NCBI GenBank assembly: GCA_023253175.1
Contig: JALRHH010000002.1
Span: 128,199-192,198, forward strand
Source of the DNA: Candidatus Saccharimonadia bacterium
GTDB taxonomy: Bacteria; Patescibacteriota; Saccharimonadia; Saccharimonadales; JALRHH01
Direction of reading: 5' to 3'
Length of the DNA: 64,000 nucleotides
This document shows positions 9,800-56,085 of the stretch, piece by piece. Each line of letters starts with the position of its first letter. Position 1 is the stretch's first letter. A program made the translations under genes and the position numbers. Below the pieces are notes generated by a model, which searched no databases, was not told where the DNA came from, and was given only the letters and a program-made list of their open reading frames with translations.

Positions 9800-9809
9800 G
9801 CTATTCCCT

Positions 9810-10238: not shown

Positions 10239-10249
10239 AACATTTACCG

Positions 10250-10292: not shown

Positions 10293-10330
10293 TAATAAAA
10301 GGACTCCCTTGATGAAAGTCCTTTTATTAT
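10292..10330 (-). terminator. Hairpin terminator after the ABC transporter operon
   Basis: Perfect 14-bp stem ATAATAAAAGGACT (10292-10305) / AGTCCTTTTATTAT (10317-10330), T-rich on both sides. Confidence 0.6.
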
Positions 10331-10352
10331 GAAGTGCCCCTGCCTGATAAAA

Positions 10353-11018: not shown

Positions 11019-11027
11019 GCTATTCTC

Positions 11028-12410
11028 CTATTCCGCCCGCATTACTTCGGCTGGCCGAACTTTACTAATCATAAGAGCTGGCAACGCACTGCCAAGGACC
11101 GCGATCAATGCTGCCGCACCAACACCGTAGGCTACGATATCGAGACCAACGTCTGCCTGAACACTGCGCGCACTACTCAGCGCATTACCACCAACACCGC
11201 GCACAAACCGCGCACCACCAGGGCCACCTTGAACCGTCTGCGTCGTTGATGTAGAGCTGTTATTTACAAGTACCTTCGTCAGTGGGTTCGCTGCCGCTAC
11301 TCCAATAATCAGGCCAACAATCATTGCCAGCACAGTCAATGTTAACGCTTCGCTAATGAACTGGAACATGATTCGAATATTTGATGCACCGATAGCCTTG
11401 TAGACACCAATCTCTCGCCTTCGTTCACGAACGATCATAACCATGGTTAATAGAATGATGACTGCGCCCGCTATAACTGCTCCGATGAGGCTAAATGTAG
11501 AGATGGTTTTTACACTTTCAAGAGGCTCGACGGCTTGCTTTGCTGACTCCTGATTGTTCGTGACATCAGCAGTGTCGCCTAGCGCAGTTTCGATAGCTGT
11601 CGTTGCGCTATCGATGTTGTCGATTGAATCAACCGTCGCTGTTGCGCTCGTAACCTGACCGGTTTGCCCCGAAAGGCGCTGCAGGCTACTTAGTGACATA
11701 ATTACGCCGTTATTAGAGAATGTATTGCCCGTATCGTAGACACCTTTTACGGTAATCATCTTGCCGTATGCAGTAAAGGTAGAGCCGACTGACAGGTTGT
11801 TCTTTTCCGCTAAGGCCTTACCGACAACCGCAACGTCTTCATCTTTTGACACATCAATTGCCTCACCAGATGTATAGGTTATGCTGTCACCGCCATATGT
11901 GGTGGTCGACAGGACACTGGCCCCAGTGATTGTCACGGGAGGAGTGAACGTCCTCGTAATTTGCGTAGACGAACCAGTGCCGGATGTACTCGTCTCGTTT
12001 CTTATTGGCATATCCGCGGGTGGCGCCTGAAAGCCAACCCCGTTGTTGCCAGCCTGACGATTACCGAGTGAACCCGCCTCAATAGCCGACACAAGATTCG
12101 TATTAGTCGAAGTCAGGCGATCACTGAGTGTTTGCGTGACTGATGTCACATGATCTACCTTTGCAACACCTGCAAGCTGTTCACTGGTTAACGGCTCGCC
12201 TCCACCCTCAAAACCACGCGATCCTGCCGGGGAGATCGTAATCGTATTGCCAATGGAACTCTTCACCGATTCTATTTTCGTGCTCACAGACGCCCTGGCA
12301 ACGAGCATCGCTAGCGCCAAGCCAATACTTAAACCTAATATCAGGACAATCGAAAATGTCCGTATGCTATTCCGGAATGCGTTTCGCACACCACGAGATA
12401 TCACATTCAA
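11028..12410 (-). CDS. ABC transporter permease, MacB/FtsX-like with large extracytoplasmic domain
   Basis: N-terminal TM, roughly 280-aa external domain, C-terminal FtsX-type 3-TM bundle. It lies adjacent to the ATPase gene. Confidence 0.8.
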   Translation of the reverse strand: MNVISRGVRNAFRNSIRTFSIVLILGLSIGLALAMLVARASVSTKIESVKSSIGNTITISPAGSRGFEGGGEPLTSEQLAGVAKVDHVTSVTQTLSDRLTSTNTNLVSAIEAGSLGNRQAGNNGVGFQAPPADMPIRNETSTSGTGSSTQITRTFTPPVTITGASVLSTTTYGGDSITYTSGEAIDVSKDEDVAVVGKALAEKNNLSVGSTFTAYGKMITVKGVYDTGNTFSNNGVIMSLSSLQRLSGQTGQVTSATATVDSIDNIDSATTAIETALGDTADVTNNQESAKQAVEPLESVKTISTFSLIGAVIAGAVIILLTMVMIVRERRREIGVYKAIGASNIRIMFQFISEALTLTVLAMIVGLIIGVAAANPLTKVLVNNSSTSTTQTVQGGPGGARFVRGVGGNALSSARSVQADVGLDIVAYGVGAAALIAVLGSALPALMISKVRPAEVMRAE

Positions 12411-12583
12411 TGTCTTATACCTTTCTTATTTATAGCGGCAATAGTAACCCAGGAATCCTGAGAGGTTTCTGAAGTGCACGTAAGCATTTTCACTTTTGCT
12501 GCGTGACATCCCTTACAGCCAATAGTTCGTAAGCTGAATATACTAAATTACATATTTGCTAACGTTTCAAAAGGAGGATCACT

Positions 12584-12994
12584 ATGAACAAATTCATGTT
12601 GTTTATAACCTTTGTGTCGCTGGGATTCCTCACTGTCCTGAGCACTATTGACCCAAATAGCTCTGCCGTTTGGCTCGCATCGCCAGACCAGTCATTTGAC
12701 ATCCTACGGAGTGGCGTTATGGTAGTACTACTCGTATTAATGTTCACAAATCCTCCTCGCAACGTTGTACTTCGAACTATTGTAGGAATTAGTGCAATTG
12801 CCCTGACTAGTTGGAGTGGATATATGGCATATGAAAGTGCCATCCAGATCTTAGACGGTCTCGTTCTGCTAGCAGCTGGTATCACTTCCCTTGTTGCAGT
12901 ACTTGAATTTGAAGGCGAAGACGCATTTTCAAAACCAATTGTTTCTCCAAATTACAAAAAGAGCCATAAAAATAAGCACGTCCACGCTGCTTGA
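12584..12994 (+). CDS. Hypothetical small membrane protein
   Basis: SD AAGGAGG lies 7 nt upstream of the ATG. About four hydrophobic segments. Confidence 0.6.
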   Translation: MNKFMLFITFVSLGFLTVLSTIDPNSSAVWLASPDQSFDILRSGVMVVLLVLMFTNPPRNVVLRTIVGISAIALTSWSGYMAYESAIQILDGLVLLAAGITSLVAVLEFEGEDAFSKPIVSPNYKKSHKNKHVHAA

Positions 12995-13019
12995 CATATC
13001 TACCCCTGTTTGGTACTAT
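12991..13019 (+). promoter_or_regulatory. Promoter of tRNA-fMet
   Basis: TTGACA (12991-12996), 17-nt spacer containing CTACCCCTGTT, TACTAT (13014-13019). Confidence 0.5.
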
Positions 13020-13073
13020 TTGTTAGCTAAACAGCCGCGGATACATGCTCAAGGTTCTCGTATCCGCTAGTAA

Positions 13074-13148
13074 CGCGGGGTAGAGCAGTGGCAGCTCGTG
13101 TGGCTCATAACCACAAGGTCGCAGGTTCGAGTCCTGCCCCCGCTACCA
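13074..13148 (+). tRNA. Initiator tRNA-fMet (CAT), CCA encoded
   Basis: 5' CGCGGGG with a C1-U72 mismatch, D arm GAGC-AGTGGCA-GCTC, anticodon loop CTCATAA, T arm GCAGG-TTCGAGT-CCTGC. Close resemblance to E. coli tRNA-fMet. Confidence 0.9.
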
Positions 13149-13155
13149 AGAAAAG

Positions 13156-13183
13156 AGTCCGATCGAAAGATTGGGCTTTTTTC
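13156..13183 (+). terminator. Intrinsic terminator of tRNA-fMet
   Basis: Stem AGTCCGATC / GATTGGGCT (two G-U pairs), GAAA tetraloop, then a T6 run. Confidence 0.7.
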
Positions 13184-13231
13184 TTGGTCATGAAGCTGAT
13201 ACGGATCTGTGACCAACCAGCTTTAGCTGGC

Positions 13232-13321
13232 AAGGTCGTAGGTTCGGTCGACAAGCCTGCTCACAGGAATTCATTCCGAGAACAAGTGCAGTCGTGCGCT
13301 GCCTGCCCCCGCTATCACAGG
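13232..13321 (+). pseudogene. Broken duplicates of the 3' half of tRNA-fMet
   Basis: AAGGTCGTAGGTTCGGTC...CCTGC (13232-13260) and CCTGCCCCCGCTATCA (13302-13317) match the tRNA's AAGGTCGCAGGTTCGAGTCCTGCCCCCGCTACCA with 3 substitutions and inserted segments. Both parts are followed by TCACAGG. Confidence 0.6.
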
Positions 13322-13374
13322 CCTTTGACCCATGGAAATCAGGGTCTTTCTACTTTGTCTGCTATCATGTGCTT

Positions 13375-13908
13375 ATGGATGAAGAGCTAGTAGATATTCT
13401 TGATGATAGTGAAAATGTCTTGCGACAAGAGTTCAAAACAGAAGCCCATAAGCATGGATGGAAGCACAAAACGGTTATAGGTTACTTAAAGTTTGGCGAT
13501 GATTGGTCTTTAGTGAGGCAGGCAGCAGACAGACAAGATGCTGGTCAACTAGTTGCACCTGTCGGAGGTCACGTTAAAGCTGGTGAAGCAGAGATAGATG
13601 CCCTACTGCGTGAAGCAGAAGAAGAGATTGGTACTCGCAACATTACATATAAATATGTAGGCAGCAAGGTTTTTCATCGCAGTATTATCGGTAGAGACGA
13701 GAACCATTTATTCGCCATCTATGAGATAGGAACAGACGACCCTATTGTACTCAACGAAGAGTCAGTCGCGATCGAACGATTTAAGCCAGAAGAATTAAAG
13801 AAAGCCCTCGATGAACATCCTGAAAATTTTGGGGATGCTTATTATTTCGTTCTCGAATCCTTTTATCCAGATTATTTACCTGCAGGTTATACTAAGCGCT
13901 GGTCCTAG
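13375..13908 (+). CDS. Nudix hydrolase
   Basis: Nudix box GGHVKAGEAEIDALLREAEEEIGT. Start moved to MDEELV (13375), because the track start 13294 lies inside the tRNA-fragment region. Confidence 0.75.
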   Translation: MDEELVDILDDSENVLRQEFKTEAHKHGWKHKTVIGYLKFGDDWSLVRQAADRQDAGQLVAPVGGHVKAGEAEIDALLREAEEEIGTRNITYKYVGSKVFHRSIIGRDENHLFAIYEIGTDDPIVLNEESVAIERFKPEELKKALDEHPENFGDAYYFVLESFYPDYLPAGYTKRWS

Positions 13909-14076
13909 ATTGTAGTAGAGTCATTTATTTACTTGATCGCTAGACAAGCCTAGCTTTGCAGTACTTATCTCTTTAAATACTCAACGTTATACTTAAGAGA
14001 AAAATATTACAGAGCTTTATTACGGTTATCAGTTAAATACAGTGGTGGTACGCGCTAACACTGGAGAATTTCTTTT

Positions 14077-14604
14077 ATGATTCGGCCATACTCGCTCGAC
14101 AAGCCTTTGGCGGCGCTGGTTGCAAAATTACCCAGATCTATTAAGCCATTGATGGACTTTGGATCATTTATTGCCGCCCCTATTCCGATGGCGTGCATTT
14201 TACTCGTGTATATACTCTCCTCTTTCATCAGAGCAGATTATGATTACGTACATTTGTATGTATTAGTCGTACTTGCCGCCCCTATCGCAGAGCTGTCGAA
14301 ATTTATTACTCGCAGGAAACGACCTGAAACACTTTATGCAGAACAGATGCGCTTTAAGACATACAGTTTTCCAAGTGGACATACCTATATTGCAACTTTG
14401 GTGTTTGGATTTTTGACGATCGTATTTGGTAATCTCCATACCTTTGGCTTGATCATAGCAACATTACTTGTGCTACTAATTTTTATGGTCGGGGTTTCGA
14501 GAGTATATTTAGGCGCGCATTTTCCAAGTGATGTCATTGCAGGATGGCTGCTTGGAGGCATGATATTATTTACGGTCAGTGCTGTAGAAGGAGTGCTATT
14601 TTGA
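14077..14604 (+). CDS. PAP2 family phosphatase (lipid phosphate / undecaprenyl-diphosphate phosphatase type)
   Basis: Tripartite PAP2 motif: KFITRRKRP, PSGHT, SRVYLGAHFPSD. Confidence 0.85.
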   Translation: MIRPYSLDKPLAALVAKLPRSIKPLMDFGSFIAAPIPMACILLVYILSSFIRADYDYVHLYVLVVLAAPIAELSKFITRRKRPETLYAEQMRFKTYSFPSGHTYIATLVFGFLTIVFGNLHTFGLIIATLLVLLIFMVGVSRVYLGAHFPSDVIAGWLLGGMILFTVSAVEGVLF

Positions 14605-15494
14605 CAAACAAAGGCAAAAAACAATACGTTCTTGTCGTAAACCTTAAATCAAGGCAGTCTGCGGAGGCTATTGATAAAGTTGAAGAGCTTTTCATGAGTA
14701 GAGATGTACTGCTGAAGGTCATAAAAGTAAAAAATCCAAGACGTATTAAAGAGGCATTCGAGGAAGCGCTCAGTGCTAACGCTGATACGATAATTCTTGG
14801 CGGCGGTGATGGAACCTTAATCAGTGGGATAGAATATTTGTCACTGAAAGACTACCAGAAACCAATCGGCCTACTTCCACTCGGCACCGCTAATTATCTG
14901 GCGCGCAATCTCGATATTCCACTCGATCTTGACGGTAGTATTGAAAATCTTTTGAATGGCTCGACTCGTCTTATTCCTATTGGCGTAGCAAATGATAAAT
15001 TCTTTGCGCTGACATTTATCGTTGGATTAACGCAGAAAGTTGCAGCAGAAGTTTCCGACAACCTTAAACGTAAGTTTGGGCAACTCGCATACATATTAGA
15101 ACTTATTAAACAGACAAGGAAACATAAAGCTTTTAGGTATACGATTGAATCCCCTGATCTGAAAAAGCCCCTCAAAGGACTGACGCATCAGATCATTGTG
15201 TACAATTCTGATATTAACCTTCAGCTAAAGTTAGTGCCGGATCATAGCCTGGAACGCACATCACTCAAAGTGGTGGTCATTAAGTGCGGCAAGAGTAAAT
15301 TCAAACTCTATGTAGGATTTTTAGTTCACATACTCACTGCAGGAAAGCTAAAGCCATACATGAAAGTTTTCGAGACACAGTCTCTCAAGATAACCACAGA
15401 TCCAGTACTGGCCGCAGACTATGATGGTGAACCATACAATCACAGCCCTTTCAATGTAGAACTATATAAAAGAAAAGTGCACATCATCTGCTAA
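14601..15494 (+). CDS. Lipid kinase, diacylglycerol-kinase catalytic-domain family (YegS/BmrU-like)
   Basis: Motifs ILGGGDGTL and LPLGTANYLARNL. Proposed TTG start at 14601 overlaps the PAP2 stop (TTGA), and SD GAAGGAG lies 7 nt upstream. Confidence 0.8.
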   Translation: MTNKGKKQYVLVVNLKSRQSAEAIDKVEELFMSRDVLLKVIKVKNPRRIKEAFEEALSANADTIILGGGDGTLISGIEYLSLKDYQKPIGLLPLGTANYLARNLDIPLDLDGSIENLLNGSTRLIPIGVANDKFFALTFIVGLTQKVAAEVSDNLKRKFGQLAYILELIKQTRKHKAFRYTIESPDLKKPLKGLTHQIIVYNSDINLQLKLVPDHSLERTSLKVVVIKCGKSKFKLYVGFLVHILTAGKLKPYMKVFETQSLKITTDPVLAADYDGEPYNHSPFNVELYKRKVHIIC

Positions 15495-15632
15495 AAAGTC
15501 AGTTTTTATCCATACCACCATATATAGCGTGTGGATAACAGCTACACTACACCGCTACGGAAATTTTTACTGCACAAAGTCTCATGAAGGCGCATGCTAG
15601 TAGAACCATAGACCTAATTAAAGGAGGCGCAT

Positions 15633-15827
15633 ATGGCTAATAACAATCGTGGATTCGCATCAATGGACGAGAACAAGCAAAAGGAAATCGCGAGCATGGG
15701 TGGTCAAGCTAGCAGTGGTAATTTCAAGAATGACCCACAGCGAGCAAGTAAAGCCGGTAAAAAAGGAGCCGAGGCGCAACCTACCGAGGCAAAGCAACGA
15801 GGCGGACAGAATAGTCACCGCAGCTAG
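15633..15827 (+). CDS. KGG-repeat general stress protein (YciG-like)
   Basis: GNFKNDPQRASKAGKKG and RGFASMD..KQKEIASMGG match the YciG/KGG stress-protein repeats. SD AAAGGAGG precedes the start. Confidence 0.8.
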   Translation: MANNNRGFASMDENKQKEIASMGGQASSGNFKNDPQRASKAGKKGAEAQPTEAKQRGGQNSHRS

Positions 15828-15848
15828 CTTCTAATTCCTATACACGAG

Positions 15849-15878
15849 AGGAGGCTCTTCTGAGTCTCCTTTTTATTT
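15849..15878 (+). terminator. Intrinsic terminator
   Basis: Stem AGGAGGCTC / GAGTCTCCT, loop TTCT, then TTTTTATTT. Confidence 0.7.
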
Positions 15879-15937
15879 CTTGTGAAAAATCCCCTTGACA
15901 GCCACTATCCCCAGACAACTCTGATAGGATATTCTCC

Positions 15938-16786
15938 CTAAAATTCAGGGATAGGGGCATCTAGCAAATTGTTCTTTGTACTTTCTTCGTCATCCATGAC
16001 AGGCCGCTCTTGCCCGACCGTACGTGATCTCTCAGCATCAATTCCATCCCGCAGTGTATCAAGCTCTTGGCGGCGTTTTCTTTTGAGCATGTTGTTCTCT
16101 GCTGCCTCAAGGAGTGATCCATTGAACCTGTTCTGCAGGACTATTGATAAGCTGCCCAGTGCAAGTGCAGCAGACGAAACAAACTCATCATCAGTGCTGG
16201 ATTCGGGATGCATAAATCTACCGAATGTACTGTGCAACCTCTCAAGTGCATACCTACCATCAGAAATGAGCCTCAGCGGGCCTTTTGCATAGGACGGCTC
16301 CCTCAGAACAATATGCAGGCCGTCTTCAAACGGGGCAAAATCCCACATTTTCCACGTAAGATAGTCGGGTCTGTACGTCTCGGGTACCCGTCCGCCCATC
16401 TGATCAACCAAGACTCTATCTAGCCCTCCGATACTCTCATCCCAGGTCCAGGCATTTGTGCCCGAGTAGTGTTCTACCGCTTCTCGCGCAATATCCCTCA
16501 GTGCAATGTTTCGTAAAGCGCCAGCTGCCGTAATGTAGTAAAGTACGTCGCCGGCTTCTGAGATCTTATCAGCATCAAGCTGCTCCGAAACACTCTGGTC
16601 AACTTCAATGCCCCATAATTTTGAAGTTAGTTCCAACGGATATCGCTCGTCCGTTAATAATTCACCAACTTCTTCATTAAATCCCTGGTGTACAATCTTA
16701 AGCTGCTCTTTTTCTGATTCAGCCCCCAGAAAGAATGCCGTGTTACGGGCATCGTACGCGTAGTCATCAAAAGTAAGCTTGTTCAC
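15938..16786 (-). CDS. Hypothetical protein with N-terminal MazG-like NTP-pyrophosphohydrolase fold
   Basis: EEVGELLTDE ... EAGDVLYYI spacing resembles the MazG EExxE...D motif. The C-terminal half is unassigned. Confidence 0.45.
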   Translation of the reverse strand: MNKLTFDDYAYDARNTAFFLGAESEKEQLKIVHQGFNEEVGELLTDERYPLELTSKLWGIEVDQSVSEQLDADKISEAGDVLYYITAAGALRNIALRDIAREAVEHYSGTNAWTWDESIGGLDRVLVDQMGGRVPETYRPDYLTWKMWDFAPFEDGLHIVLREPSYAKGPLRLISDGRYALERLHSTFGRFMHPESSTDDEFVSSAALALGSLSIVLQNRFNGSLLEAAENNMLKRKRRQELDTLRDGIDAERSRTVGQERPVMDDEESTKNNLLDAPIPEF

Positions 16787-16965
16787 TAAGTTATATTAAA
16801 CAATAAGAAGCTCATATAACCATGAGCGGCTCGTGCTAATTTGTCGATGCCTAGTCTTCCTTGGCACAAAGTATATGTCATAATATGAGATTAGTTACTT
16901 GTCAATATCTCCTGTATAGTTAATACCAGAAGTAATCAAACTACGACTCGCGAGGAGTACACAAT

Positions 16966-17019
16966 ATGTCCAGGGACAAAGGCCGCAAAGAAGCTAAAAA
17001 ACCCAAAAAGGCCAAATAG
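16966..17019 (+). CDS. Tiny lysine-rich ORF (17 aa, MSRDKGRKEAKKPKKAK)
   Basis: Hand-found, below the track cutoff. SD GAGGAG lies 8-9 nt upstream. Its stop is 2 nt before the next ATG. Confidence 0.3.
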   Translation: MSRDKGRKEAKKPKKAK

Positions 17020-17021
17020 CC

Positions 17022-17279
17022 ATGGCACAAAGTATTAAACGTAGGACTGACTTTCTGGAGTCCCAGGCAGGGATTGAGGCAAGAGAAATATTAGAGCAAA
17101 TGGTATCTGATAGCTCATACAACACTGCATCAACGTATAGTTCCAATGCAGACCTCTACCCCGACAATCTGATGCCATTCATTGATAAACACATGGATTA
17201 CATGTGTACCCACACCGAATTAAACCCGCGCCTCTATCTGTCAAACCTCAGACTTATGTCACGAAGCAGGAACGGCTAA
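17022..17279 (+). CDS. Hypothetical protein (85 aa)
   Basis: ORF only, with no recognisable motif. It lies upstream of the ABC-2 transporter pair. Confidence 0.45.
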   Translation: MAQSIKRRTDFLESQAGIEAREILEQMVSDSSYNTASTYSSNADLYPDNLMPFIDKHMDYMCTHTELNPRLYLSNLRLMSRSRNG

Positions 17280-17345
17280 GGCCGGATCTAGAGGCTTATA
17301 GTTAGGTTTTTCATTCCTATTACGTTTATCTGATACCATACATAT

Positions 17346-18236
17346 ATGGACAAGCAGAGCACTTTACTAGAAGTTACCAACCTGACGAAAGACTTTGGAA
17401 ATAGTAAGGGTATTTTTGACGTAAACTTCTCTGCTGGACCCGGCGAGATCATCGGATTTGTTGGACCAAATGGTGCCGGCAAAAGCACCACTATCAATAT
17501 CCTAACGGGCCTTATAAGCGCTGATTCCGGTAATGTGGAAATTCTTAATACATCAGTCACCCCTACTTCGGCACATCAACTCATGAAACAGCTCGGCATC
17601 ATGTATTCTGAATCTACGCTTGATGAATCAAAGACCGCCGCACAAGTATTCAAAGATACTGAAAGACTGATCGGCAAAGATTGTTCCGAGGCCTGGCAAT
17701 CCATAGCAAAACAGTTCGAGCTGGACATTACAAAACGTATTAAAAAATTGAGCCTTGGCAATAAAAAGAAGGTTGCCGCAATCCGGGCATTGATGCACAA
17801 ACCGGAACTGATCATCATGGATGAGCCAACCTCTGGGCTGGACCCGATTATTAAAGACGGGTTCATGAATATGCTCCGTAGTGCCGCTAATCAGGGCGCA
17901 ACCGTGCTACTTTCCTCCCACGATCTCTCAGAAGTACAACATATCTGTACACGAATCATCATGATAAAGAATGGCAAGATTATTATCGATGATACAACAA
18001 GTGATATTCTCGGCAAGCTGCAGCGCCGATTCAGGCTTATTAAACCAGACAAGGCGCTGGTTGACGCAATTACAAAACAGACAGGTGCCGAAGACGTACA
18101 GACCAGTGACGATCAATTAATCATTCACACGAGTGAATACCAAAAAGTTATAGAAATCATGGAAAAGGCAAAATTCTATGACTATTTTATTGAGCAGCCA
18201 TCACTGGAAGATGCCTTTAAGGAGAAATATGTTTAG
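17346..18236 (+). CDS. ABC transporter ATP-binding protein (ABC-2 subfamily)
   Basis: Walker A GPNGAGKST, signature LSLGNKKKVA, Walker B LIIMDEPTSGLD. Confidence 0.9.
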   Translation: MDKQSTLLEVTNLTKDFGNSKGIFDVNFSAGPGEIIGFVGPNGAGKSTTINILTGLISADSGNVEILNTSVTPTSAHQLMKQLGIMYSESTLDESKTAAQVFKDTERLIGKDCSEAWQSIAKQFELDITKRIKKLSLGNKKKVAAIRALMHKPELIIMDEPTSGLDPIIKDGFMNMLRSAANQGATVLLSSHDLSEVQHICTRIIMIKNGKIIIDDTTSDILGKLQRRFRLIKPDKALVDAITKQTGAEDVQTSDDQLIIHTSEYQKVIEIMEKAKFYDYFIEQPSLEDAFKEKYV

Positions 18237-19044
18237 TATCCGACTATTATTACAAGAACTCCGCGCCAGGCGGCGACTACTGATCACCTGGAGCATCATC
18301 TGGTCGCTACTGTTGGTATTTTTCACCAGCGTCTTTAATTCCTTTAGCAAGGATGCAGCCCAGAACGCACAGCTCTTCGAACAGCTACCAAAAGGATTCT
18401 TTGACGCACTCAATATCAACCCGTCACTGTATTTGTCGCAAATTGAACAGTTTATATCAGGACAATTCTTATTCGTATACTTACTAGCCGGCTGTATCTT
18501 TGCATTTAGCATGGGCGTTGGAGCCATCGGTAAACGCGTAGACAACCGCACCATCGCACTGCTCCTGACATCACCGCTATCACGGGGCAAAATATACATG
18601 ACGCAGCTTGTCGCCAACCTACTCTTCTTTGTAGTTAGCGGTACACTCCTTTGCGTCGTTTCTCTACTCGCCATGAATAACCTTTTAAGCCATCAGGAAG
18701 TCGTATCAATGGCCTATTTTGTGTGCCTATTTGCAGGCTCTAGCCTGCTGTTCAGCACTTTTAGCGCGCTTGGGCAGCTTATAGGTCTGCTTACCAACGG
18801 AGAACACGCCACGCAGATTGGTGCAGGCATCGTGGTGGTCAGCTGGTTTACAACAAGCCTAGGAAACCTGGTAAACATTCCAGCAGTATTGCAGCATCTG
18901 TCACTCTTTCAGTATTTTGATACGACCTTATTACGAGACAACTTCACATTAAGCACGAGCGGCAGCATAGTGCTATTTTCTGTAATTATTGCCCTGGCAG
19001 TGGCTGGCACGATTGCATTCCGAAGGAAAAATATATACTTATAG
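18229..19044 (+). CDS. ABC-2 type transporter permease
   Basis: Six-TM hydrophobic protein. Start ATG 18229 overlaps the ATPase stop by 8 nt. The track start 18178 lies inside the ATPase gene. Confidence 0.75.
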   Translation: MFSIRLLLQELRARRRLLITWSIIWSLLLVFFTSVFNSFSKDAAQNAQLFEQLPKGFFDALNINPSLYLSQIEQFISGQFLFVYLLAGCIFAFSMGVGAIGKRVDNRTIALLLTSPLSRGKIYMTQLVANLLFFVVSGTLLCVVSLLAMNNLLSHQEVVSMAYFVCLFAGSSLLFSTFSALGQLIGLLTNGEHATQIGAGIVVVSWFTTSLGNLVNIPAVLQHLSLFQYFDTTLLRDNFTLSTSGSIVLFSVIIALAVAGTIAFRRKNIYL

Positions 19045-19049
19045 GTCAT

Positions 19050-19676
19050 ATGAAGATTATTGTTTTTGGGGCAAATGGTAGGGTTGGCAGCTTAGTAGTT
19101 AAACGTTGTCTTGAGCAAGGCCATAACGTCACCGCATTTGTACGCGGTAACCATACATTTCAATCCAGTCCCAATCTATCAATTGTGCAAGGTGACATAT
19201 ACGACTCGTCATCAATTGAAAGCGCCATACCTGGTCACAATGCAGTAATAAGTTGCCTAGGCAGTTGGGGCACACCAAAGAAAGACATCCTTGCTACGGC
19301 AATGCGAACCATTGTGCCGACAATGGAAGCGCATGGCGTACAAAGGCTCGTATCTTTAACTGGTAGCGATGCAAGAGCATCGGGTGATACCATTGATCTG
19401 ATCAATAGAATCACGCACCCTATCTTTTCACTACTTGCACCTAAAATCATGCGTGACGGCGAAGAACATATACAGATAATCAGCAAGAGTAATCTCTCTT
19501 GGACCGTTTTGCGGTCGCCAGTCATGAATGATAAAGGACGCACCATGTACAAACTACGAGACCGGCGACCAAAGCCGTGGCACACGATTAATCGAAATGC
19601 CGTTGCTCATGCGCTCGTTGACCTAGCAGCAACGAATGACCATCTGAAATCTTCGCCCTACATATATAGGGACTAG
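19050..19676 (+). CDS. NAD(P)H-binding oxidoreductase (atypical SDR / NmrA-like)
   Basis: N-terminal Rossmann motif MKIIVFGANGRVGSLVV. Confidence 0.8.
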   Translation: MKIIVFGANGRVGSLVVKRCLEQGHNVTAFVRGNHTFQSSPNLSIVQGDIYDSSSIESAIPGHNAVISCLGSWGTPKKDILATAMRTIVPTMEAHGVQRLVSLTGSDARASGDTIDLINRITHPIFSLLAPKIMRDGEEHIQIISKSNLSWTVLRSPVMNDKGRTMYKLRDRRPKPWHTINRNAVAHALVDLAATNDHLKSSPYIYRD

Positions 19677-25590: not shown

Positions 25591-25666
25591 GGGGGTGTAG
25601 CTCAGGGGTTAGAGCAGTCGGCTCATAACCGATTGGTCGCTGGTTCGAACCCAGCCACCCCCACCA
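25591..25666 (+). tRNA. tRNA with CAT anticodon (elongator Met or Ile2), CCA encoded
   Basis: Acceptor GGGGGTG/CACCCCC, D arm GCTC-AGGGGTTA-GAGC, anticodon arm GTCGG-CTCATAA-CCGAT, T arm GCTGG-TTCGAAC-CCAGC. Confidence 0.9.
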
Positions 25667-42470: not shown

Positions 42471-43103
42471 ATGAGCAATGACTGGCAAACTACCCTTCGG
42501 AATGCAGAAGACGCCCTTTCAAGGGTGGATCCGGTCATAGCGTCGCTCATCACCATACATGGGCCCTGCCAGCTGTCACCACATACCGATTACTACCAGC
42601 AGCTCGTTCGTTCAATTATTGGCCAGCAGCTGTCCGTGAAAGCAGCCGCCACGATATATAATCGCTTTCTGGACTTATTCGATGGCAGTATGCCAACACC
42701 AGAACAAATCATTACGACAAGCGCAGAGGAGTTTCGTGCCATCGGTTGCAGCTATTCAAAGGCTAGTTATATCCATGACCTTGCCCTACATATATTGGAT
42801 GGGCGACTTGATTTAGCTCACATTGCCACACTTCAAAACGAAGAAATTATCAGACAGCTTGTTGCAGTCAAAGGCATCGGCGAATGGTCTGCGCACATGT
42901 TCATGATGTTTAGCCTCGGCCGCCTAGACATCCTACCCACAGGTGACCTTGGCATCAGAAAAGCAATGATGATTCAGTATGAACTCGCTGAGCTTCCAAA
43001 ACCTGCCGAGATGCTAGGATTAGCGCTCGAACATGGATGGTCACCGTATCAGTCCGTTGCGAGCTGGTACTTATGGCGCAGCTTGGACAACGAGCCGGCA
43101 TAG
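42471..43103 (+). CDS. DNA-3-methyladenine glycosylase II-like (AlkA, HhH-GPD)
   Basis: IIGQQLSVKAAATIYNRF, the HhH VKGIGEWSAHMFMMF, and catalytic D in PTGDLGIRKA. Confidence 0.8.
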   Translation: MSNDWQTTLRNAEDALSRVDPVIASLITIHGPCQLSPHTDYYQQLVRSIIGQQLSVKAAATIYNRFLDLFDGSMPTPEQIITTSAEEFRAIGCSYSKASYIHDLALHILDGRLDLAHIATLQNEEIIRQLVAVKGIGEWSAHMFMMFSLGRLDILPTGDLGIRKAMMIQYELAELPKPAEMLGLALEHGWSPYQSVASWYLWRSLDNEPA

Positions 43104-43119
43104 CGGTATCATAACGGTA

Positions 43120-43785
43120 ATGTTTATATCAAAACTCCCGCATGTAACCAGAAGCGAACTATTCTTAGCTCAGCTTGTGCTGTACATTGCTGTCGGACTA
43201 CAGGTTACGACCTGGGTAACAAGCGGTGATCTTTCATACGGCCCACACCCTTTGATCATTATCAGTGAATTGGTGCTTGTAACCGTTCTGGGTCTCAGTG
43301 CCCGGCACCCAGAAACACTCAAACGATCAACATACCGCACCTTGTCCTTCGCAATGCTTGGCCTTATTTCTGTCGAGAACATTAGCTCCATGATCATCGT
43401 TCTTCGACTACTGATTACAGAGGCTGATATTATTAGCGGCTATAACCTACTCGCCTCCGCACTGGCTATATTCCTCACTAACATCATCGTGTTCTCGTTG
43501 TGGTACTGGGAGATAGACAGTCCGGGCCTTTCTGGAAAAAAATGGTCAAAACACGACAAAGATTTTCAGTTTACGCAGCAGGACCACCCGACAGAATTCA
43601 AAAACTGGCAGCCTTCATTTCCTGACTATCTCTATCTTTCTGTAACAAATGCAATCAACTTTGCCGCGGCCGACGCGCGGCCAATCACCCATCAGGCGAA
43701 GCTACTCATGGGTATTCAAGCACTCGTTTCTTTAGCGACACTTGCACTCGTTATTGCCCGTTCTGTCAGTATTCTTGGCCAATAA
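43120..43785 (+). CDS. Hypothetical polytopic membrane protein (DUF1345-like)
   Basis: About 5 TM segments. The FPDYLYLSVTNAINFAAADA segment is reminiscent of DUF1345, recalled from memory. Start placed at MFISK (43120). Confidence 0.5.
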   Translation: MFISKLPHVTRSELFLAQLVLYIAVGLQVTTWVTSGDLSYGPHPLIIISELVLVTVLGLSARHPETLKRSTYRTLSFAMLGLISVENISSMIIVLRLLITEADIISGYNLLASALAIFLTNIIVFSLWYWEIDSPGLSGKKWSKHDKDFQFTQQDHPTEFKNWQPSFPDYLYLSVTNAINFAAADARPITHQAKLLMGIQALVSLATLALVIARSVSILGQ

Positions 43786-44110: not shown

Positions 44111-45652
44111 CTATTTTATTTCTATGTCTTCGCCGAAGTGTTTTTCTAGTCTCTTTTTGATGCTGCCTGGATGGCGGCCGAAATGATTACTTAACATGTT
44201 AAGTGTTTCTTTGTTTTCAAATCTTGACTTCAACTCTTCATCGTCCGCTTCTTTCCACGGCATGTAGGCATTTGGGAATTCTTCGCGCATTTTGGCGAGC
44301 TTTTCCGACCAATCAGATTTTGGCTTTTCAGGTACCTCTTCTTCTGGCTGATCCTTTCGCTTTTCCTCGTCCTGGTGCCACTTTTCAATGACCGCAGCAT
44401 AGGTTGCCAGCGCATCATCGCTGCGTTTCCGCAGTTCACTGTCAATTTGCCTTGCGAGCGGGCTTGTCTTTAGTGCCATACCATTCAGTCCATCCAGCGC
44501 CAGCTGTTTCATGCTCTTCACACGAGAAAGCGCAACATACCCCATGCCTTCGACAAACGCGCGGCGCAGGTCAATATGTGCTGCATCCAACGTCATGCCC
44601 TGGCTCTTGTGCACTGTGATCGCCCATGCAAGGCGAATTGGTAGCTGCGTCAGTGTTGCCCGGCGCTTGTCGCCATCAACGAGCTCCCAAGTCTCAGGTG
44701 AAATCGTTAGCTTGCGGCCATTATTTAGTTGCACAATTGGATACTCAGTTTCATCATCAAACCCTACCACCACACCAAGCGATCCATTCACGTATTTGCG
44801 GTCCTGGCTGTTTTTAATACACATGACGTGCGCGCCTTTTTTCAGGAACAGAACTTCGGGCGCCAAGCATGATCGCATTAACTGCTCTACATATTTTTTG
44901 CCGCCACTTGTTTCCATGCTGTATTCGTACATGTCACCATCAAGTCTCTGCAGTTCGCCGTCATTAATGCGATCAACATCAGCATTGGTTGTCAGCAACC
45001 TTGTACGAGGCGTGAATGGATCAAGGGCAACTTCAATCCTATCCTGCAGAGCGGTTAGTTGATTACGCGTCAGTACGCCGCCACGGATGCCGTTTAGGAT
45101 TTGGGCATAGGTGTCGTCTTCACTCTGACGATACTGCTTCTCCAGGTAGCAGACTGCAAAATCCCCATCTTGCCATGCACTCGAAGACAGCACAAAACTA
45201 CCACTGCGGCCCTCTGATCGGTTTACTGGAGGCAACTGGAAGAAATCACCGACCAGCACGACCTGTAGCCCGCCAAACGGCTCGGCATTTCCGCGGACGT
45301 ACCGAGTAACTTCCTCGATCATGTCCAACCGAAAGTCATGGAGCATACTGATCTCGTCGATAATTAGAATATCTGCCTTGGCTATCAAACCTTGCCGCTG
45401 CTTACCAAGCTTCTGAAAAAAGAGCTGCGGAAGCTCGTCATGTACACCGATGCCTGCCCATGCATGAATAGTGGCACCGTTCAGGTGCGTCGCAGCCAGT
45501 CCGGTCGTGGCTGTTACGGCGATGCTCTTGCCCCGGCGTTTGCTACGACGAATAAACTCATTCATGAGATACGTCTTACCGGTACCAGCTGCACCTGTTA
45601 ACAGGACCGACTGGCCCGACTCTAAAATAGCTAAAGCTTCTGCCTGCGTCAT
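44111..45652 (-). CDS. PIF1/RecD-type superfamily-1 DNA helicase
   Basis: Walker A LLTGAAGTGKTY, Walker B ILIIDEISM, LVGDFFQLPPV, and C-terminal ITVHKSQGMT motifs. Confidence 0.85.
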   Translation of the reverse strand: MTQAEALAILESGQSVLLTGAAGTGKTYLMNEFIRRSKRRGKSIAVTATTGLAATHLNGATIHAWAGIGVHDELPQLFFQKLGKQRQGLIAKADILIIDEISMLHDFRLDMIEEVTRYVRGNAEPFGGLQVVLVGDFFQLPPVNRSEGRSGSFVLSSSAWQDGDFAVCYLEKQYRQSEDDTYAQILNGIRGGVLTRNQLTALQDRIEVALDPFTPRTRLLTTNADVDRINDGELQRLDGDMYEYSMETSGGKKYVEQLMRSCLAPEVLFLKKGAHVMCIKNSQDRKYVNGSLGVVVGFDDETEYPIVQLNNGRKLTISPETWELVDGDKRRATLTQLPIRLAWAITVHKSQGMTLDAAHIDLRRAFVEGMGYVALSRVKSMKQLALDGLNGMALKTSPLARQIDSELRKRSDDALATYAAVIEKWHQDEEKRKDQPEEEVPEKPKSDWSEKLAKMREEFPNAYMPWKEADDEELKSRFENKETLNMLSNHFGRHPGSIKKRLEKHFGEDIEIK

Positions 45653-45666
45653 TACTACTTATTGTA

Positions 45667-45728
45667 CTGAAATTCACCGAAGTTTACTGATGTAATTTCA
45701 GACATTAGCACTTTTTATTTCCTGAAAT
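45667..45728. promoter_or_regulatory. Inverted and direct CTGAAAT(T) repeats in the helicase / PafA-like divergent intergenic region
   Basis: CTGAAATT (45667-45674) and its exact complement AATTTCAG (45694-45701), plus a third CTGAAAT (45722-45728) next to SD AAGGAG. Confidence 0.4.
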
Positions 45729-45748
45729 AAGGAGTATGGTGCGTAATT

Positions 45749-47110
45749 ATGAACGTTTTTATGGATCGTATTCACGGTACGGAGATGGAATGGGGAGCAA
45801 TGGTGGTCCACCCCAAGCAGAGTATGCAATTCCAGCTTAACGGCAATGTCCTCGAGGATCATGTCAAAGAAGCGATGACCAAAAATGGAACTGCTTTCAT
45901 CGGCCGAAATAATGACCACTATCTAGAAAATGGAGCACGTCTTTATCGTGATGGCTACGAGCGCTGGGAATATGCCACTCCGGAAGATATATCTTATGCA
46001 GGCACAACCGCAAACGAGTTTGCGGGCGAACGTTATTTAGCAGACACTGCCGCCCTGTACAAAGAAGAGACGGGGAATAATATTTCGTTTACTAAGCGAG
46101 TTATTGATGATAAGGAACGAAGCTGCGGGTATCACGTCAGCTATTGCCTAGACGCCAAAAAAGTTAAGATCACCGAGGATGCGCTTGCCTTGTATGGCGT
46201 ATTTGCGGCCACTAGAAGTGTGGTATTTGGATCAGGCGCTCTGCTCCCTGGCGGAAAATTCATACTCGGCCAAAAGGCGTTTACTGCAAACTGCGATTAT
46301 AGCCCCCACACCATACGCCAAAAGCCAGTTGTTAACCTCAGGGATGAACCTCTTGCAAACCCTGATAAATTTACCCGTTTTCATGACACCCTAATTGATC
46401 CGAGCATGTCCCCCTGGTCATCACGTGTAAAGATTGCGGCCGGATCGATTGTTGCTCGTATGGTTGAGGCCAACGAACACATGCCCTGGCTCAGGTTCGA
46501 CAGCCCGCTTTGTCTGGTTGCCCGCAATACCAGTGCCGATAACAGGCTTGCACTTCAACATCGACTCATCAGTGGCAACTACATATCTGCCATTGATGTA
46601 CAGCAAATTATAGTAAAACACGCTCGACACCTTGCAGAAGAGAGCACTATCAGCTTGAACGATGAAGAACAATGGGCACTCGAAGAGTGGGAGGGCGCGC
46701 TCAAAGACTTGGCGCAAAATCCCGCACTTACTAACAGAAGAATAGAGTGGATTGATAGGCTGAAAATCCTGGACCGCCAGCACGAAAGGCATGGATACGG
46801 CTGGGATAGCGAGTATTTGCGCTACAAGGACAGGCAGTTTAGTGAAATTGCCACTCAAGGAATAGCTAAGGCGCTCCGGGAAACTATCTGGTCAGAATAC
46901 ATGCCAGAAAATTCACTCATTAAAGAAAGAATGCATCGTCCACCCGCAACGCGGGCAGCCATTAGGGGCAGGTTTATACAGAAAGTAGCAGACCGGCCCA
47001 ATGCTAACTTATCAAGAATTATGTGGAGTAATATTCGATACAGGGGCGTGGACTATCAACTGTCCGACCCGTATCAGTCCACCGACCAAGACCTTGATGC
47101 TATTGCGTAA
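45749..47110 (+). CDS. Pup-ligase/deamidase family protein (PafA/Dop homolog)
   Basis: [53 protein letters not shown] and [12 protein letters not shown] align with M. tuberculosis PafA segments [51 protein letters not shown] and TTRARLRGEFI, recalled from memory. Alternative start 45761 (MDRIHG). Confidence 0.8.
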   Translation: [453 protein letters not shown]

Positions 47111-48857
47111 CGATCGCCATCGATAGTTCGTCGAGTTGCTGCTCATCAACAACGCTTGGGGAGTTCATCATGAGGTCAACACCTGAGCCGTTCTTTGGGA
47201 AGGCTACAACTTCACGAACATTGCTTTCGCCGACTAGTTCCATCAGCATACGGTCGATACCAAATGCACAACCAGCGTGCGGAGGGGCACCAAACTTAAA
47301 TGCGTTAATCATCGCGCCGAAGCGGTCTTCTACGTACTGCTTGTCATACCCTAGTACACCGAACACTTCATACAGCACTTCTGGGTTGTGATTACGGACA
47401 CCACCAGAACAGATTTCGTAGCCATTCATGACCATGTCGTACTGGTCGGCTAGAATTGCCTGCTTGTCCTCTGCCGCCAATGACTCAAGGCCGCCCTTCG
47501 GCATGCTGAATGGGTTGTGACCAAAGTCGAGCTTTTTAGCCCTTTCGTCGTATTCGTAGAATGGGAAATCAACAATCCATGCTAATGCGATAACGTTTGG
47601 ATCCTTCAATTCAAAATGAGTAGCAAATTCATTCCGAAGCCTTCCGAGCACTTTGTTGACAACGGCCCTAGTGTCAGCGCCGAAGAATACGGTGTCGCCA
47701 TCCTGGGCGCCAGTCTTTTGTTGAATTGCAGCGAGTTCTGATTCGGTTAGGAACTTGGCAATCGGCGATTTAACCTCACCGTTTTCATATGTGATGTACG
47801 CGAGACCACCAGCACCCTCTGATTTAGCGATATCAGTAAACTTATCAATCTGAGAGCGTGAAAGTGAAGCACCATTTTCTACGCGAATCGCTTTAACCGC
47901 GCCGCCACTTGTCAGCGGGTTCTTGAATACACCAAATTCACTTGCAGACAGTTCTTCGGACAGATCAATTAATTCCATGCCAAAACGTAGATCTGGTTTG
48001 TCGGAACCAAATCGTTCCATCGCCTCTTGATACGGAATACGTGGCACTTCTTCTGAGAGTATTTTTTTGCCAGCAAAATCAGTTACTAAATTCTTGATAA
48101 GCGGGTCCATTAGGCTACGGACTTCTTCGCCGTCTTCGACAAACGACATTTCAAGGTCAAGCTGATAGAACTCGCCGTAGAGGCGATCCGCACGCGGGTC
48201 TTCATCGCGGAAACATGCGGCTAGCTGATAGTACCGTGGTACGCCGCCAACCATAAGTAGCTGCTTGAACTGCTGTGGGGCCTGAGGTAATGCGTAGAAT
48301 TTACCAGCCTGAAGTCGTGATGGAATTAAGAAATCACGTGCACCCTCTGGGCTGCTGTTAGCAAGAATTGGCGTAGTGACCTCTGTAAATTCTTGCTCTT
48401 CCATGTAAGTACGCATAACTTTGTACATTTGGGCGCGTTTTTTGAGCATAGACTGCATCTTGTCGCGGCGCAGGTCAAGGAATCGGTACCGAAGGCGCTG
48501 TTCCTCACTGCTAATGTTTTCGCCGTGCAGCTGAATCGGAAGTGGCTCTGCTCTGTTTAAAATACTTAACTTGTTAAGTATTATTTCAACACCGCCTGTT
48601 GGGATGTTTGGATTCTTCAGTCCGTCCTCGCGTTCGGCAACTTGGCCGGTTGCACTAATCACGAACTCGTCACGGAGCTCTTCCGCGATCTTGAAGCCCT
48701 CTTCGTTGTCTGGACGGATCACAAGCTGGACAATACCAGTATGGTCGCGCAGATCAATAAAAATAAGCCCACCGTGATCACGACGTGACTGTACCCAACC
48801 TTTAACAGTAATTTCAGAACCAATCTGTTCTGGTGCAGCAACTGCGTATGTTCTCAT
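47100..48857 (-). CDS. aspS: Aspartate--tRNA ligase
   Basis: 585 aa: OB-fold N-terminus (VKGWVQSRRDHGGLIFIDLRD), class II motifs (FRDEDPRADR, GAPPHAGCAFGIDR), bacterial insertion domain. Confidence 0.95.
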   Translation of the reverse strand: MRTYAVAAPEQIGSEITVKGWVQSRRDHGGLIFIDLRDHTGIVQLVIRPDNEEGFKIAEELRDEFVISATGQVAEREDGLKNPNIPTGGVEIILNKLSILNRAEPLPIQLHGENISSEEQRLRYRFLDLRRDKMQSMLKKRAQMYKVMRTYMEEQEFTEVTTPILANSSPEGARDFLIPSRLQAGKFYALPQAPQQFKQLLMVGGVPRYYQLAACFRDEDPRADRLYGEFYQLDLEMSFVEDGEEVRSLMDPLIKNLVTDFAGKKILSEEVPRIPYQEAMERFGSDKPDLRFGMELIDLSEELSASEFGVFKNPLTSGGAVKAIRVENGASLSRSQIDKFTDIAKSEGAGGLAYITYENGEVKSPIAKFLTESELAAIQQKTGAQDGDTVFFGADTRAVVNKVLGRLRNEFATHFELKDPNVIALAWIVDFPFYEYDERAKKLDFGHNPFSMPKGGLESLAAEDKQAILADQYDMVMNGYEICSGGVRNHNPEVLYEVFGVLGYDKQYVEDRFGAMINAFKFGAPPHAGCAFGIDRMLMELVGESNVREVVAFPKNGSGVDLMMNSPSVVDEQQLDELSMAIVTQ

Positions 48858-54264: not shown

Positions 54265-55836
54265 TTACGCTGCCAGAGTAAAAATTGACGGCTTTTGTTG
54301 GGCCTTCGGTTTCTTCTTTGGTTCAATAATTTTTGAGTCTACCTTCTTAAAACCACAGCCACAGAACGCATCTGATGTTTCAGCATTGTAATAAACCTTT
54401 CCTATGCTTTTGCAGCCAGGACACCAAGCCTTATCATATGAGACAAGCTTGCTTAATTCAGAAGGCTTAATGCCAAGCTCACGTGCCGCCGCTAAATCCT
54501 CTATGCTATTTGGGTCAGCTGCCTTAAGCCCGCAGGCTCCGCCGGCACAACCACCGCCAACCTTAACATCTTGACTAGCGATCGATCGATCGATTTCGTT
54601 TAGATTACTCATTGATGTCATTACAGAATTTACATCTTCGTGAGCAGCTTGCTTAATTCGCTGTACAGTCTGAGTATCAACCTGATCAATCACCTTAACG
54701 TTATCTGTCACAATTCCAGCCTTTGTCGCAATAATATTTCGCTTTGCCTTTTCAACTAAAGCTGCGAGCTCCCTGGTCATGATATATCTAGTACCCCGCC
54801 TGTGACTCTCTACTCTTTGTTTAATGTAATCTTCCCACTCTTGTGAAACATTATCTATAAAGCTTGTTACAGCGTCCGTGCTCATACCTTGTTCAAGGCT
54901 CGCCGCGAGCTCCAGAGATGATTCATACCATTCCTGTGAGAAAAACTTTGCTTTCTCCTCATATAGACATTGATCCTGACGGAAACGCTCAAGCTGGGAC
55001 TTTACAGAATCTCTTATGTCTTGATCGTGAATATAGGGCAAAACCGAAGAAACAATTGTCACTGGGCCTTCTTGAACCTGCTCTAGTGGCAACTCGAGCT
55101 CACTGAAAGCCTCCATGACAGATAGTGCGGAACCTTTATCCTCTAACTGGATCGATTTGCTAAATATATTCTGATCGTCTTCAAGCATTGCTACCCATGC
55201 ATCAAGTGGTATGTCGCGGACCAGCAGCGACTCCATCACTCTATAAGATTCATTTCCATGGCTATCTGTTAACAGGTAGGACGCTCGTATAGAGTCTTCT
55301 TCGTGCAAGTGCTCCGCGGCAGCAATATATGCAGGCGCATCAGTGTCAGACATGCGTGGTGATATGAAGAATTGTACGCGTCCGGGCTGCAATGTTTCCT
55401 GCGTATGGATAGCTTCAGCAACCTCAATATCAACCCGCTTAGCTGCTTGCTTTGAAAAATGAAAATCGTAACCACTCTCTGCAACGCTAGTAGCCGTACG
55501 CCCCAGCCAGCGGAAGACACGTTCCATTTTTTGAGCCTCCGGAATATATACCTGCTCCACTCTGTGCGCTGTGCGCGTCACTGCGTACGGCATTGCGATT
55601 TCGCTAAGCGCTGTTTGCTTGTTAACCAACACGTCGTCTCTAATCTCGTTAGGTACATACCCGAACTCTTTGAGAGATGATGCAAGGTGGTCAACCTCCG
55701 TCAATAAGCGGCTGATCTCAATATCGGGCAGAACTTCACTACCATCAATGGTAGCCTGCAACGTCTCGACACTAGCTACAGATACCACTCTCGGGGTTTC
55801 TTGACTTAAGGCGGCTAGCTCGACCACTGATTCCAT
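54265..55836 (-). CDS. Hypothetical protein with C-terminal cysteine cluster
   Basis: Start placed at MESVV (55836), with SD GAGGG 7 nt upstream. The C-terminus has GGGCAGGACG and WCPGCKS...FCGCGF motifs. Confidence 0.6.
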   Translation of the reverse strand: MESVVELAALSQETPRVVSVASVETLQATIDGSEVLPDIEISRLLTEVDHLASSLKEFGYVPNEIRDDVLVNKQTALSEIAMPYAVTRTAHRVEQVYIPEAQKMERVFRWLGRTATSVAESGYDFHFSKQAAKRVDIEVAEAIHTQETLQPGRVQFFISPRMSDTDAPAYIAAAEHLHEEDSIRASYLLTDSHGNESYRVMESLLVRDIPLDAWVAMLEDDQNIFSKSIQLEDKGSALSVMEAFSELELPLEQVQEGPVTIVSSVLPYIHDQDIRDSVKSQLERFRQDQCLYEEKAKFFSQEWYESSLELAASLEQGMSTDAVTSFIDNVSQEWEDYIKQRVESHRRGTRYIMTRELAALVEKAKRNIIATKAGIVTDNVKVIDQVDTQTVQRIKQAAHEDVNSVMTSMSNLNEIDRSIASQDVKVGGGCAGGACGLKAADPNSIEDLAAARELGIKPSELSKLVSYDKAWCPGCKSIGKVYYNAETSDAFCGCGFKKVDSKIIEPKKKPKAQQKPSIFTLAA

Positions 55837-56085
55837 AAAAATACCCTCATTCTCTGATGCGAAAATGAGGGGACTAAAATACTTAGGCACTTCACTCTTG
55901 CTCGAGAGATTTTATCGCTGTATCGGACTTTAACCGTTGCGGCACAGTTCAGGAATTTCACCTGCTTCCAGCTCTATGTTTTTGTAAAAGTTACGCTTAT
56001 CTTATCACGAAAATAGGACGCTAGATGTAGTAGTATACGCTACAGCTAGTGCCCTATTTGTATGTCATACACCAGGGGTGGTGTA

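Follow-up and report, generated by a model that had tools for sequence, protein, structure and literature searches.

Here we describe a lone gene of the Pup-ligase family on a 64-kb stretch of a Candidatus Saccharimonadia genome (contig JALRHH010000002.1, positions 128,199 to 192,198; the whole stretch is called the window below, and positions are counted from its first letter). With moderate confidence we read its product as a folded, competent Pup-ligase-family enzyme that selection has kept after pup was lost from the locus, the partner being either a relocated Pup or a different protein. The enzyme belongs to a clade found in Saccharibacteria, one branch of which still carries pup directly upstream of the ligase. 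Related loci are denoted by L numbers and individual proteins by P numbers. The gene itself is:

45749..47110, forward strand: Pup-ligase/deamidase family gene, 453 aa, of a Saccharibacteria-specific clade without adjacent Pup (open reading frame (ORF), PF03136, AlphaFold2, Foldseek)

A full-length Pup-ligase-family protein outside the PafA and Dop equivalogs

The ORF runs from an ATG start to a TAA stop. The initial annotation, made from the sequence alone, had called its product a full-length homolog of PafA and Dop and quoted five peptide strings from it, all of which are present, at residues 8, 58, 125, 194 and 400. The call is borne out by the Pfam profile Pup_ligase (PF03136), which matches residues 7–428 over positions 1–439 of its 441 (224.5 bits, E 3e-66, far above the gathering cut-off of 25 bits), and by the PafA model TIGR03686, which aligns over residues 7–452. 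AlphaFold2, given a 31-sequence alignment (A1), returned a model with a predicted local distance difference test score (pLDDT) of 94 and a predicted template modelling score of 0.93. In Foldseek searches this model gave template modelling (TM) scores of 0.83–0.85 to Dop (4B0R, 5LRT, 7OXY) and 0.81 to PafA (4BJR), followed by YbdK (0.46) and glutamine synthetases (~0.3). Structure prediction, one of the checks put forward in the initial annotation, thus recovers a Dop/PafA-type fold, and the predicted fold is that of a glutamine-synthetase-like carboxylate-amine ligase with a small C-terminal domain. A search of PADLOC-DB 2.0 with the protein returned no defence-system family at E up to 0.01.

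Profile searches at the subfamily level place the protein in neither group. It scores 162.9 bits against the PafA equivalog TIGR03686 (curated cut-off 551.3) and 140.1 bits against the Dop equivalog TIGR03688 (curated cut-off 492.3); since both defining scores were tested and not reached, we classify it by profile as a PF03136 member outside both equivalogs. Every Saccharibacterial relative tested likewise falls below the two cut-offs, with the PafA score slightly above the Dop score in each.

By alignment, the architecture of the enzyme appears PafA-like, because it has no Dop-loop, carries an extra residue after the catalytic Asp and scores slightly better with the PafA than with the Dop model. 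The absence of the loop is seen in the alignment to 4b0r, which begins at query residue 58, equivalent to Dop residue 84. Five residues separate the catalytic Asp from the next Glu, as in PafA, whereas Dop has four (spacing D-H-A-H-P-E), and G-Y stands where Dop has H-A. The diagnostic positions in Table 1 of Hecht et al. 2020 (PMC7947786) give a mixed picture: A76, the residue inserted behind the Asp, the Arg that corresponds to Arg199 of C. glutamicum PafA and an aromatic side chain in place of Phe54 are PafA-like, P78 is Dop-like, and most others match neither enzyme.

Besides the TM score of 0.81, the lack of a Dop-loop, the five-residue spacing and the Arg at the Arg199 position, the enzyme shares with PafA (TIGR03686; 4B0T, 4BJR) the full-length alignment, the Mg ligands, the catalytic Asp and the TRAxxR motif. 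It differs from PafA in overall sequence (~22–23% identity), in leaving most PafA-specific positions unmatched, in reading H-V-S instead of H-E-N, in having no pup, pafBC, proteasome or Mpa genes at its locus, and in branching outside PafA plus Dop. Dop (TIGR03688; 4B0R, 5LRT, 7OXY) is its best structural and pairwise match (phmmer 126 bits), with the same catalytic set and a Pro at a Dop-type position (P78 of the ligase); unlike Dop, it lacks the ~37-residue Dop-loop and the His-Ala after Asp, and has one more residue in that place. The single-copy homologs from Planctomycetes and Armatimonadota (the latter annotated 'PafA2', and possibly from UBact-type systems) are comparable in that there is one member per locus, neither clearly PafA nor Dop; the Armatimonadota enzymes read H-E-S at the His segment. 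However, these homologs are much nearer to Dop (P0077: 456 bits) and align to part of the Dop-loop. The Planctomycetes PafA/Dop homologs served as the outgroup in Hecht et al. 2020 (PMC7947786).

The catalytic centre is retained

In the Dop enzyme of A. cellulolyticus, Mg is bound by Glu8, Glu10, Tyr92, Glu99, His155 and His241, and Asp94 is catalytic (Cui et al. 2021, PMC8599861). HMMER alignments to 4b0r and 4b0t, together with the family alignment, map these ligands to E12, E14, Y66, E74, H129 and H212 of the ligase and the catalytic Asp to D68; the placement of E12 and E14 also follows from the Pfam match, which starts at residue 7. The elements concerned are:

45776..45790, forward strand: GhExE nucleotide/Mg motif, G10-T-E12-M-E14, equivalent to Dop Glu8 and Glu10 (PMC8599861)
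45929..45985, forward strand: active-site strand and loop, N61-G-A-R-L-Y66-R-D68-G-Y-E-R-W-E74-Y-A-T-P-E79, with Mg ligands Y66 and E74 and catalytic D68
46133..46141, forward strand: H129-V130-S131, the segment flagged in the initial annotation (H-E-N in PafA and Dop), H129 being equivalent to Dop His155
46340..46384, forward strand: R198-D-E-P ... R210-F-H212, equivalent to NTRDEP ... RRLH of PafA/Dop, H212 corresponding to the Dop Mg ligand His241
46949..46966, forward strand: T401-R-A-A-I-R406 motif of the C-terminal part, kept throughout the Pup-ligase family

Conservation of these residues is high. In the 31-sequence alignment Y66, D68, E74, H129 and H212 are invariant, as are R198, R210 and the T401–R406 motif, while at least 90% of the sequences have E12 and E14; in the clade the two Glu residues are kept wherever the N-terminus is present. 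Among 185 clade members all seven catalytic and Mg-binding residues are near-invariant (Y66, D68 and E74 in 181–184 of the 185), and conservation of the TRAAIR region spans the two Saccharibacterial subclades as well as the reference Dop and PafA enzymes. Retention extends beyond the metal site: the Pup-using references and the Pup-linked Saccharibacterial enzymes have 50 conserved columns in common, and in 47 of these at least 60% of the Pup-less clade shows the reference residue, including W314, D264, Q285, T-R-A-x-x-R (401–406) and W426. From these residues and the model we predict an ATP/Mg-dependent, catalytically competent enzyme, and our moderate confidence is a joint one for this prediction and the reading given at the outset.

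The flagged string SCGYHVSYC begins at residue 125. That its His is kept while Glu becomes Val and Asn becomes Ser is real; the further suggestion of changed chemistry or a non-catalytic role does not stand. The Mg-ligand His is retained with all other ligands and the Asp, and it is the following two positions that vary, and they do so clade-wide: His is found in 184 of the 185 members, followed by E (93), I (30), V (26) or A (15) and then by N (114) or S (71), the exact triplet HVS occurring in 11. Because the Saccharibacterial enzymes with an adjacent canonical Pup vary here too (HIN or HMN), we see in H-V-S no sign of altered chemistry.

One Saccharibacterial clade, with and without pup

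In a collection of species-representative genomes, all ten matches (10/10) fell in Saccharibacteria (TM7) metagenome-assembled genomes; a contig scan with the single ligase protein gave none, and the ten came from an alignment-based rescan. Named database relatives are annotated 'PafA2 family protein [Candidatus Saccharimonadales]'. Searching 1.84 billion cluster representatives with a profile produced 6263 superfamily hits, and at least 150 representatives (50% identity) score at least 320 bits against the Saccharibacterial profile. In neighbour-joining trees the Saccharibacterial enzymes are monophyletic (100/100 bootstraps) and separate from actinobacterial Dop, a PafA and the Armatimonadota 'PafA2' proteins. 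With the sparse PafA sampling of these trees, phylogenetic placement, another of the proposed checks, puts a Saccharibacteria-only clade outside the sampled PafA and Dop. An acquisition from a host, which had been raised as one origin of the gene, finds no backing in this single clade, in the 25–30% identity to Dop and PafA or in base composition, which is even across the window (G+C 44–49%) with no anomaly at the ligase gene.

Within the clade, a Pup-linked subclade (98/100 bootstraps) is sister to the Pup-less clade of the window ligase. In its five independent loci (L006/L013, L014, L025, L027 and L029) an ORF of 61–77 aa matching the Pup family PF05639 lies directly upstream of the ligase:

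L006 9769-11389: pup and single ligase
L014 9741-11416: pup and single ligase
L025 5733-7324: pup and single ligase
L027 9783-11383: pup and single ligase
L029 9782-11413: pup and single ligase

These Pups end in QQGGQ, QRGGQ, QKGGQ or QQGGE (GGQ in four loci, GGE in L027), and no proteasome or Mpa gene was seen in the annotated flanks of the loci. Since most of them end in Gln and the locus holds one enzyme, deamidation and ligation may both fall to that enzyme. The Pup-linked ligases (P0063, P0068, L014, L025, L027), which NCBI labels 'proteasome accessory factor PafA2 family protein', share with the window ligase the clade, the architecture, remnants of gene order and a hydrophobic residue after the Mg-ligand His. 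They are unlike it in having a canonical Pup directly upstream and in their identity to it of 28–29%, where members of its own clade reach 33–51%.

In the clade of the window ligase no Pup was found in any of 16 loci for which 5 kb or more of flank was covered, so the orphan state that the initial annotation had described locally holds clade-wide. Three deep members (L011, L015 and L030) also have no adjacent Pup. On the 16-kb contig of L030, which has no Pup, two tandem Pup_ligase paralogs of 461 and 472 aa (4621–7421; 45% identical) may represent an independent duplication parallel to that of PafA and Dop.

An HhH-GPD glycosylase, a PIF1 helicase and the series aspS-CBS-DsbA recur near both Pup-linked and Pup-less loci. 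Because the sister subclade with adjacent Pup shares these remnants of gene order, pup was probably lost from the locus of the window ligase; the simplest reading would be an ancestor with a two-gene pup–ligase cassette at this position and no proteasome. We infer loss of pup here, rather than its relocation.

No Pup and no proteasome in the window

The gene is flanked as the initial annotation had it: a divergent Pif1/RecD-type helicase on one side and a convergent aspS on the other.

44111..45652, reverse strand: PIF1/RecD2-type helicase, divergent to the ligase across a 96-bp spacer
45653..45748, no strand: divergent helicase–ligase spacer, 96 bp, with a Shine-Dalgarno sequence AAGGAG at 45729-45734 and no pup remnant
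47100..48857, reverse strand: aspS, convergent with the ligase, overlapping it by 11 bp

The earlier statement that no listed ORF ends in GGQ or GGE also holds, and extends to Pup, proteasome and Mpa across the 64 kb. A scan for C-terminal motifs found no credible ORF ending in GGQ, GGE, GQ or GE; the sole stop-to-stop segment ending in GGE has 32 codons and no Met, and lies antisense inside the ORF 43033–43785. That ORF, a 250-aa membrane protein, was considered as a Pup and rejected, as it ends in LGQ and is not Pup-like. Against a six-frame translation of the window the Pup hidden Markov model reached at most 5 bits, and phmmer found no Pup either. A scan for the motif alone revealed no plausible UBact-like small ORF in the window, one whose C-terminus would be Gly and then Glu or Gln. 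Pfam scans of about 50 window ORFs detected neither a proteasome subunit nor Mpa/ARC; FtsH (1890–3764) was the one AAA protein they found.

In the spacer itself, comparison of 45653–45748 with its counterparts in L001, L002, L007, L017 and L019 shows blocks conserved across the six: CTATTGTAC, adjoining the helicase start, and AGCACTTTTTATTTC. A consensus scan for promoters and terminators gave nothing above shuffled expectation, and no sigma-70-like promoter in the spacer.

Rapid divergence under purifying selection

The ligases of the window and of L001 share 47% identity, whereas eleven flanking proteins are 70–93% identical between the two (aspS 91%, helicase 90%). At the nucleotide level identity is 91% in the upstream spacer, 37–60% over most of the ligase ORF, with one 90-bp stretch reaching 71%, and ~80% in aspS. 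The ratio of ligase to aspS distance is ~4.3 for most genome pairs (range 3.0–4.5) and 8.5 for the window against L001, and ligase distances plateau at 0.83–0.96 regardless of flank distance. The pattern of distances suggests that alleles were replaced or that change came in an early burst. A special acceleration of the window lineage was considered and discarded, as root-to-tip lengths are even.

For the one pair in which the ratio of nonsynonymous to synonymous divergence (dN/dS) was obtained, L001 against L018 (87% identity), it is 0.088 at a dS of 0.80, a clear signal, at the sequence level, of purifying selection on the ligase; dS is saturated for all neighbour genes. Broken copies also exist:

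L007 9998-11365: disrupted ligase copy, in three ORFs of 124, 243 and 93 aa between an intact helicase and an intact aspS
L021 12-1294: disrupted ligase copy, frameshifted near the His motif, with intact neighbours
L011 8671-9027: second-copy remnant, a 118-aa N-terminal part 1 kb upstream of the intact copy

The helicase as a probable remnant of gene order

The initial annotation had further proposed that helicase and ligase form a two-gene module. Examining their co-occurrence, we find the divergent adjacency only in the window, L001, L002, L007, L017, L018 and L019, loci in which the whole ~20-kb region has the same gene order; in one of them, the Saccharibacteria genome L007, flanking proteins are ~60–80% identical to those of the window. 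The adjacency is absent from L003–L005, L008–L010, L016, L020 and L031. Here the ligase has other neighbours: an unknown 161-aa gene upstream in L003, malic enzyme in L031, and the S9/L13 ribosomal cluster in L004, L005, L008, L010 and L016. Elsewhere a PIF1 helicase is found downstream of the ligase, at ~7 kb in L015 and at 2.8 kb in L027, and in L032 it is adjacent but convergent. The module idea is therefore dropped, the adjacency being confined to relatives that share the gene order of the whole region, and the recurring PIF1 helicase fits a remnant of ancestral gene order, with no conserved functional pair.

In L032, the ligase and its convergent PIF1+HRDC helicase stand beside a toxin–antitoxin-rich island (9627–19483) with PemK/MazE twice, PIN/PhdYeFM and BrnT/BrnA.

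Other features of the window

A 541-aa ORF on the reverse strand (54265–55890), with no Pfam or PADLOC match, is closely preceded by an AdoCbl-II (cobalamin) riboswitch at 55910–55989, whose 39.5 bits exceed the gathering score. The positional counterpart of this ORF in L001 is 25% identical over 277 aa, where flanking genes are 77–93% identical. It is a second hypervariable gene of the window and may encode a B12-related protein of the cell surface or of uptake.

Within 21 kb there are three tRNA genes whose anticodon is CAT (5349–5425, 13074–13148 and 25591–25666), and a PP-loop family gene (PF01171; 3799–4737, reverse strand) possibly encodes the lysidine synthetase TilS. One of the three may be a lysidine-modified tRNA-Ile2, not tRNA-Met.

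What the enzyme may do

By homology, ATP and Mg would be bound in the beta-sheet cradle, and the C-terminal Gly-Gly-Glu/Gln-type tail of a partner protein would be held in the conserved groove. The side-chain carboxylate of the partner's C-terminal Glu would be phosphorylated with ATP to an acyl-phosphate, and the acyl group would pass to a lysine amine; instead of this ligation, the enzyme might catalyse the reverse or amidase reaction. We infer the ligase direction and the nature of the substrate from sequence features, and favour ligation because the loop architecture is PafA-like.

Several observations weigh against a competent enzyme retained after loss of pup from the locus. The PafA/Dop diagnostic positions are mixed, with P78 Dop-like and most others fitting neither enzyme, and a few positions that are conserved in the clade carry a non-consensus residue in the window ligase (Y70 for Gly, A230, I234, A236). 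The dN/dS value comes from one pair only, and the broken copies in L007 and L021, with their neighbours intact, mean that some relatives can do without the gene. The flanks examined amount to a few percent of each genome, and a Pup could lie in the remainder; in Actinobacteria, too, pafA does not adjoin pup.

This last point, which is established knowledge, also speaks for proteasome-independent pupylation with pup elsewhere in the genome. The enzyme would then be the Pup ligase of the organism, perhaps a bifunctional one, with parallels in the sister subclade and in proteasome-lacking Corynebacterium. We take this possibility seriously while leaning against it. Almost every residue conserved throughout the family is retained in the ligase, also in the C-terminal region and away from the metal site, the gene is under purifying selection, and the sister subclade exemplifies Saccharibacterial use of Pup with no proteasome nearby. 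However, pup abuts the ligase in five of the five Pup-linked loci, and the 16 loci of the Pup-less clade, as well as L011, L015 and L030, have no Pup within up to 10 kb, which weighs against relocation, as some of the moves should then have been short. Searches with the Saccharibacterial Pups, insensitive as they are, returned just the two known clusters; a database search that added M. tuberculosis Pup gave a list dominated by actinobacterial Pups and no further Saccharibacterial clusters. That the clade has truly lost Pup and its enzyme now acts on something else we find a little harder to believe, and rate as rather doubtful.

Two further explanations strike us as improbable. Were the gene a decaying relic, functionless since the loss of pup and drifting towards a pseudogene, the broken copies in L007 and L021 and the second-copy remnant in L011 would be expected, as would divergence ~4x faster than that of aspS and 47% identity amid flanking proteins at 70–93%. 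Such decay is hard to square with a dN/dS of 0.088, with catalytic residues near-invariant in 185 members spanning ~30% identity, with an ORF that nearly every locus retains intact at its full length and that yields a confident AlphaFold2 model, or with root-to-tip lengths that give the window ligase no special acceleration; we consider it quite unlikely. More unlikely still is an enzyme directed at the host. Saccharibacteria live as epibionts on Actinobacteria, a group with Pup, and after losing its own pup the cell might target host Pup or pupylated host proteins, the fast, allele-like divergence reflecting an arms race. The sharp limitation of divergence to the ORF next to upstream DNA of 91% identity, the plateau of ligase distances and the ligase/aspS ratio of 8.5 against ~4.3 are circumstantial signs of this kind, but weak constraint combined with deep genome divergence would also explain them, dS being saturated for all neighbours. 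Moreover, the protein has no evident signal peptide, its catalytic motif beginning at residue 10, no secretion genes were seen adjoining the ligase, and PADLOC gave no match. As a target, host Pup or pupylated proteins are less likely than some other protein whose last residue is Glu or Gln.

Significance for pupylation

Pupylation is regarded as a trait of Actinobacteria (and Nitrospirae) that is tied to the proteasome. Pup-ligase homologs outside those groups have been described as sporadic (PMC7947786). Our literature search found no paper linking PafA or Pup with Saccharibacteria or Patescibacteria, and none relevant on UBact; the existing public annotation of relatives goes no further than 'PafA2 family'. 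The present analysis adds a large and very diverse clade of single enzymes of the Pup-ligase family, spread across Saccharibacteria, with pup in one subclade and no linked Pup in the other. These paired clades are an apparently undescribed lead on the evolution of pupylation. They offer a handle on the role of the ancestral enzyme before its duplication, and allow testing of whether the Pup-ligase fold can serve a Pup-independent function. If Pup has truly been lost from the clade, another protein with a C-terminal Glu or Gln as partner would make this a new bacterial protein-tagging system in ultra-small episymbionts.

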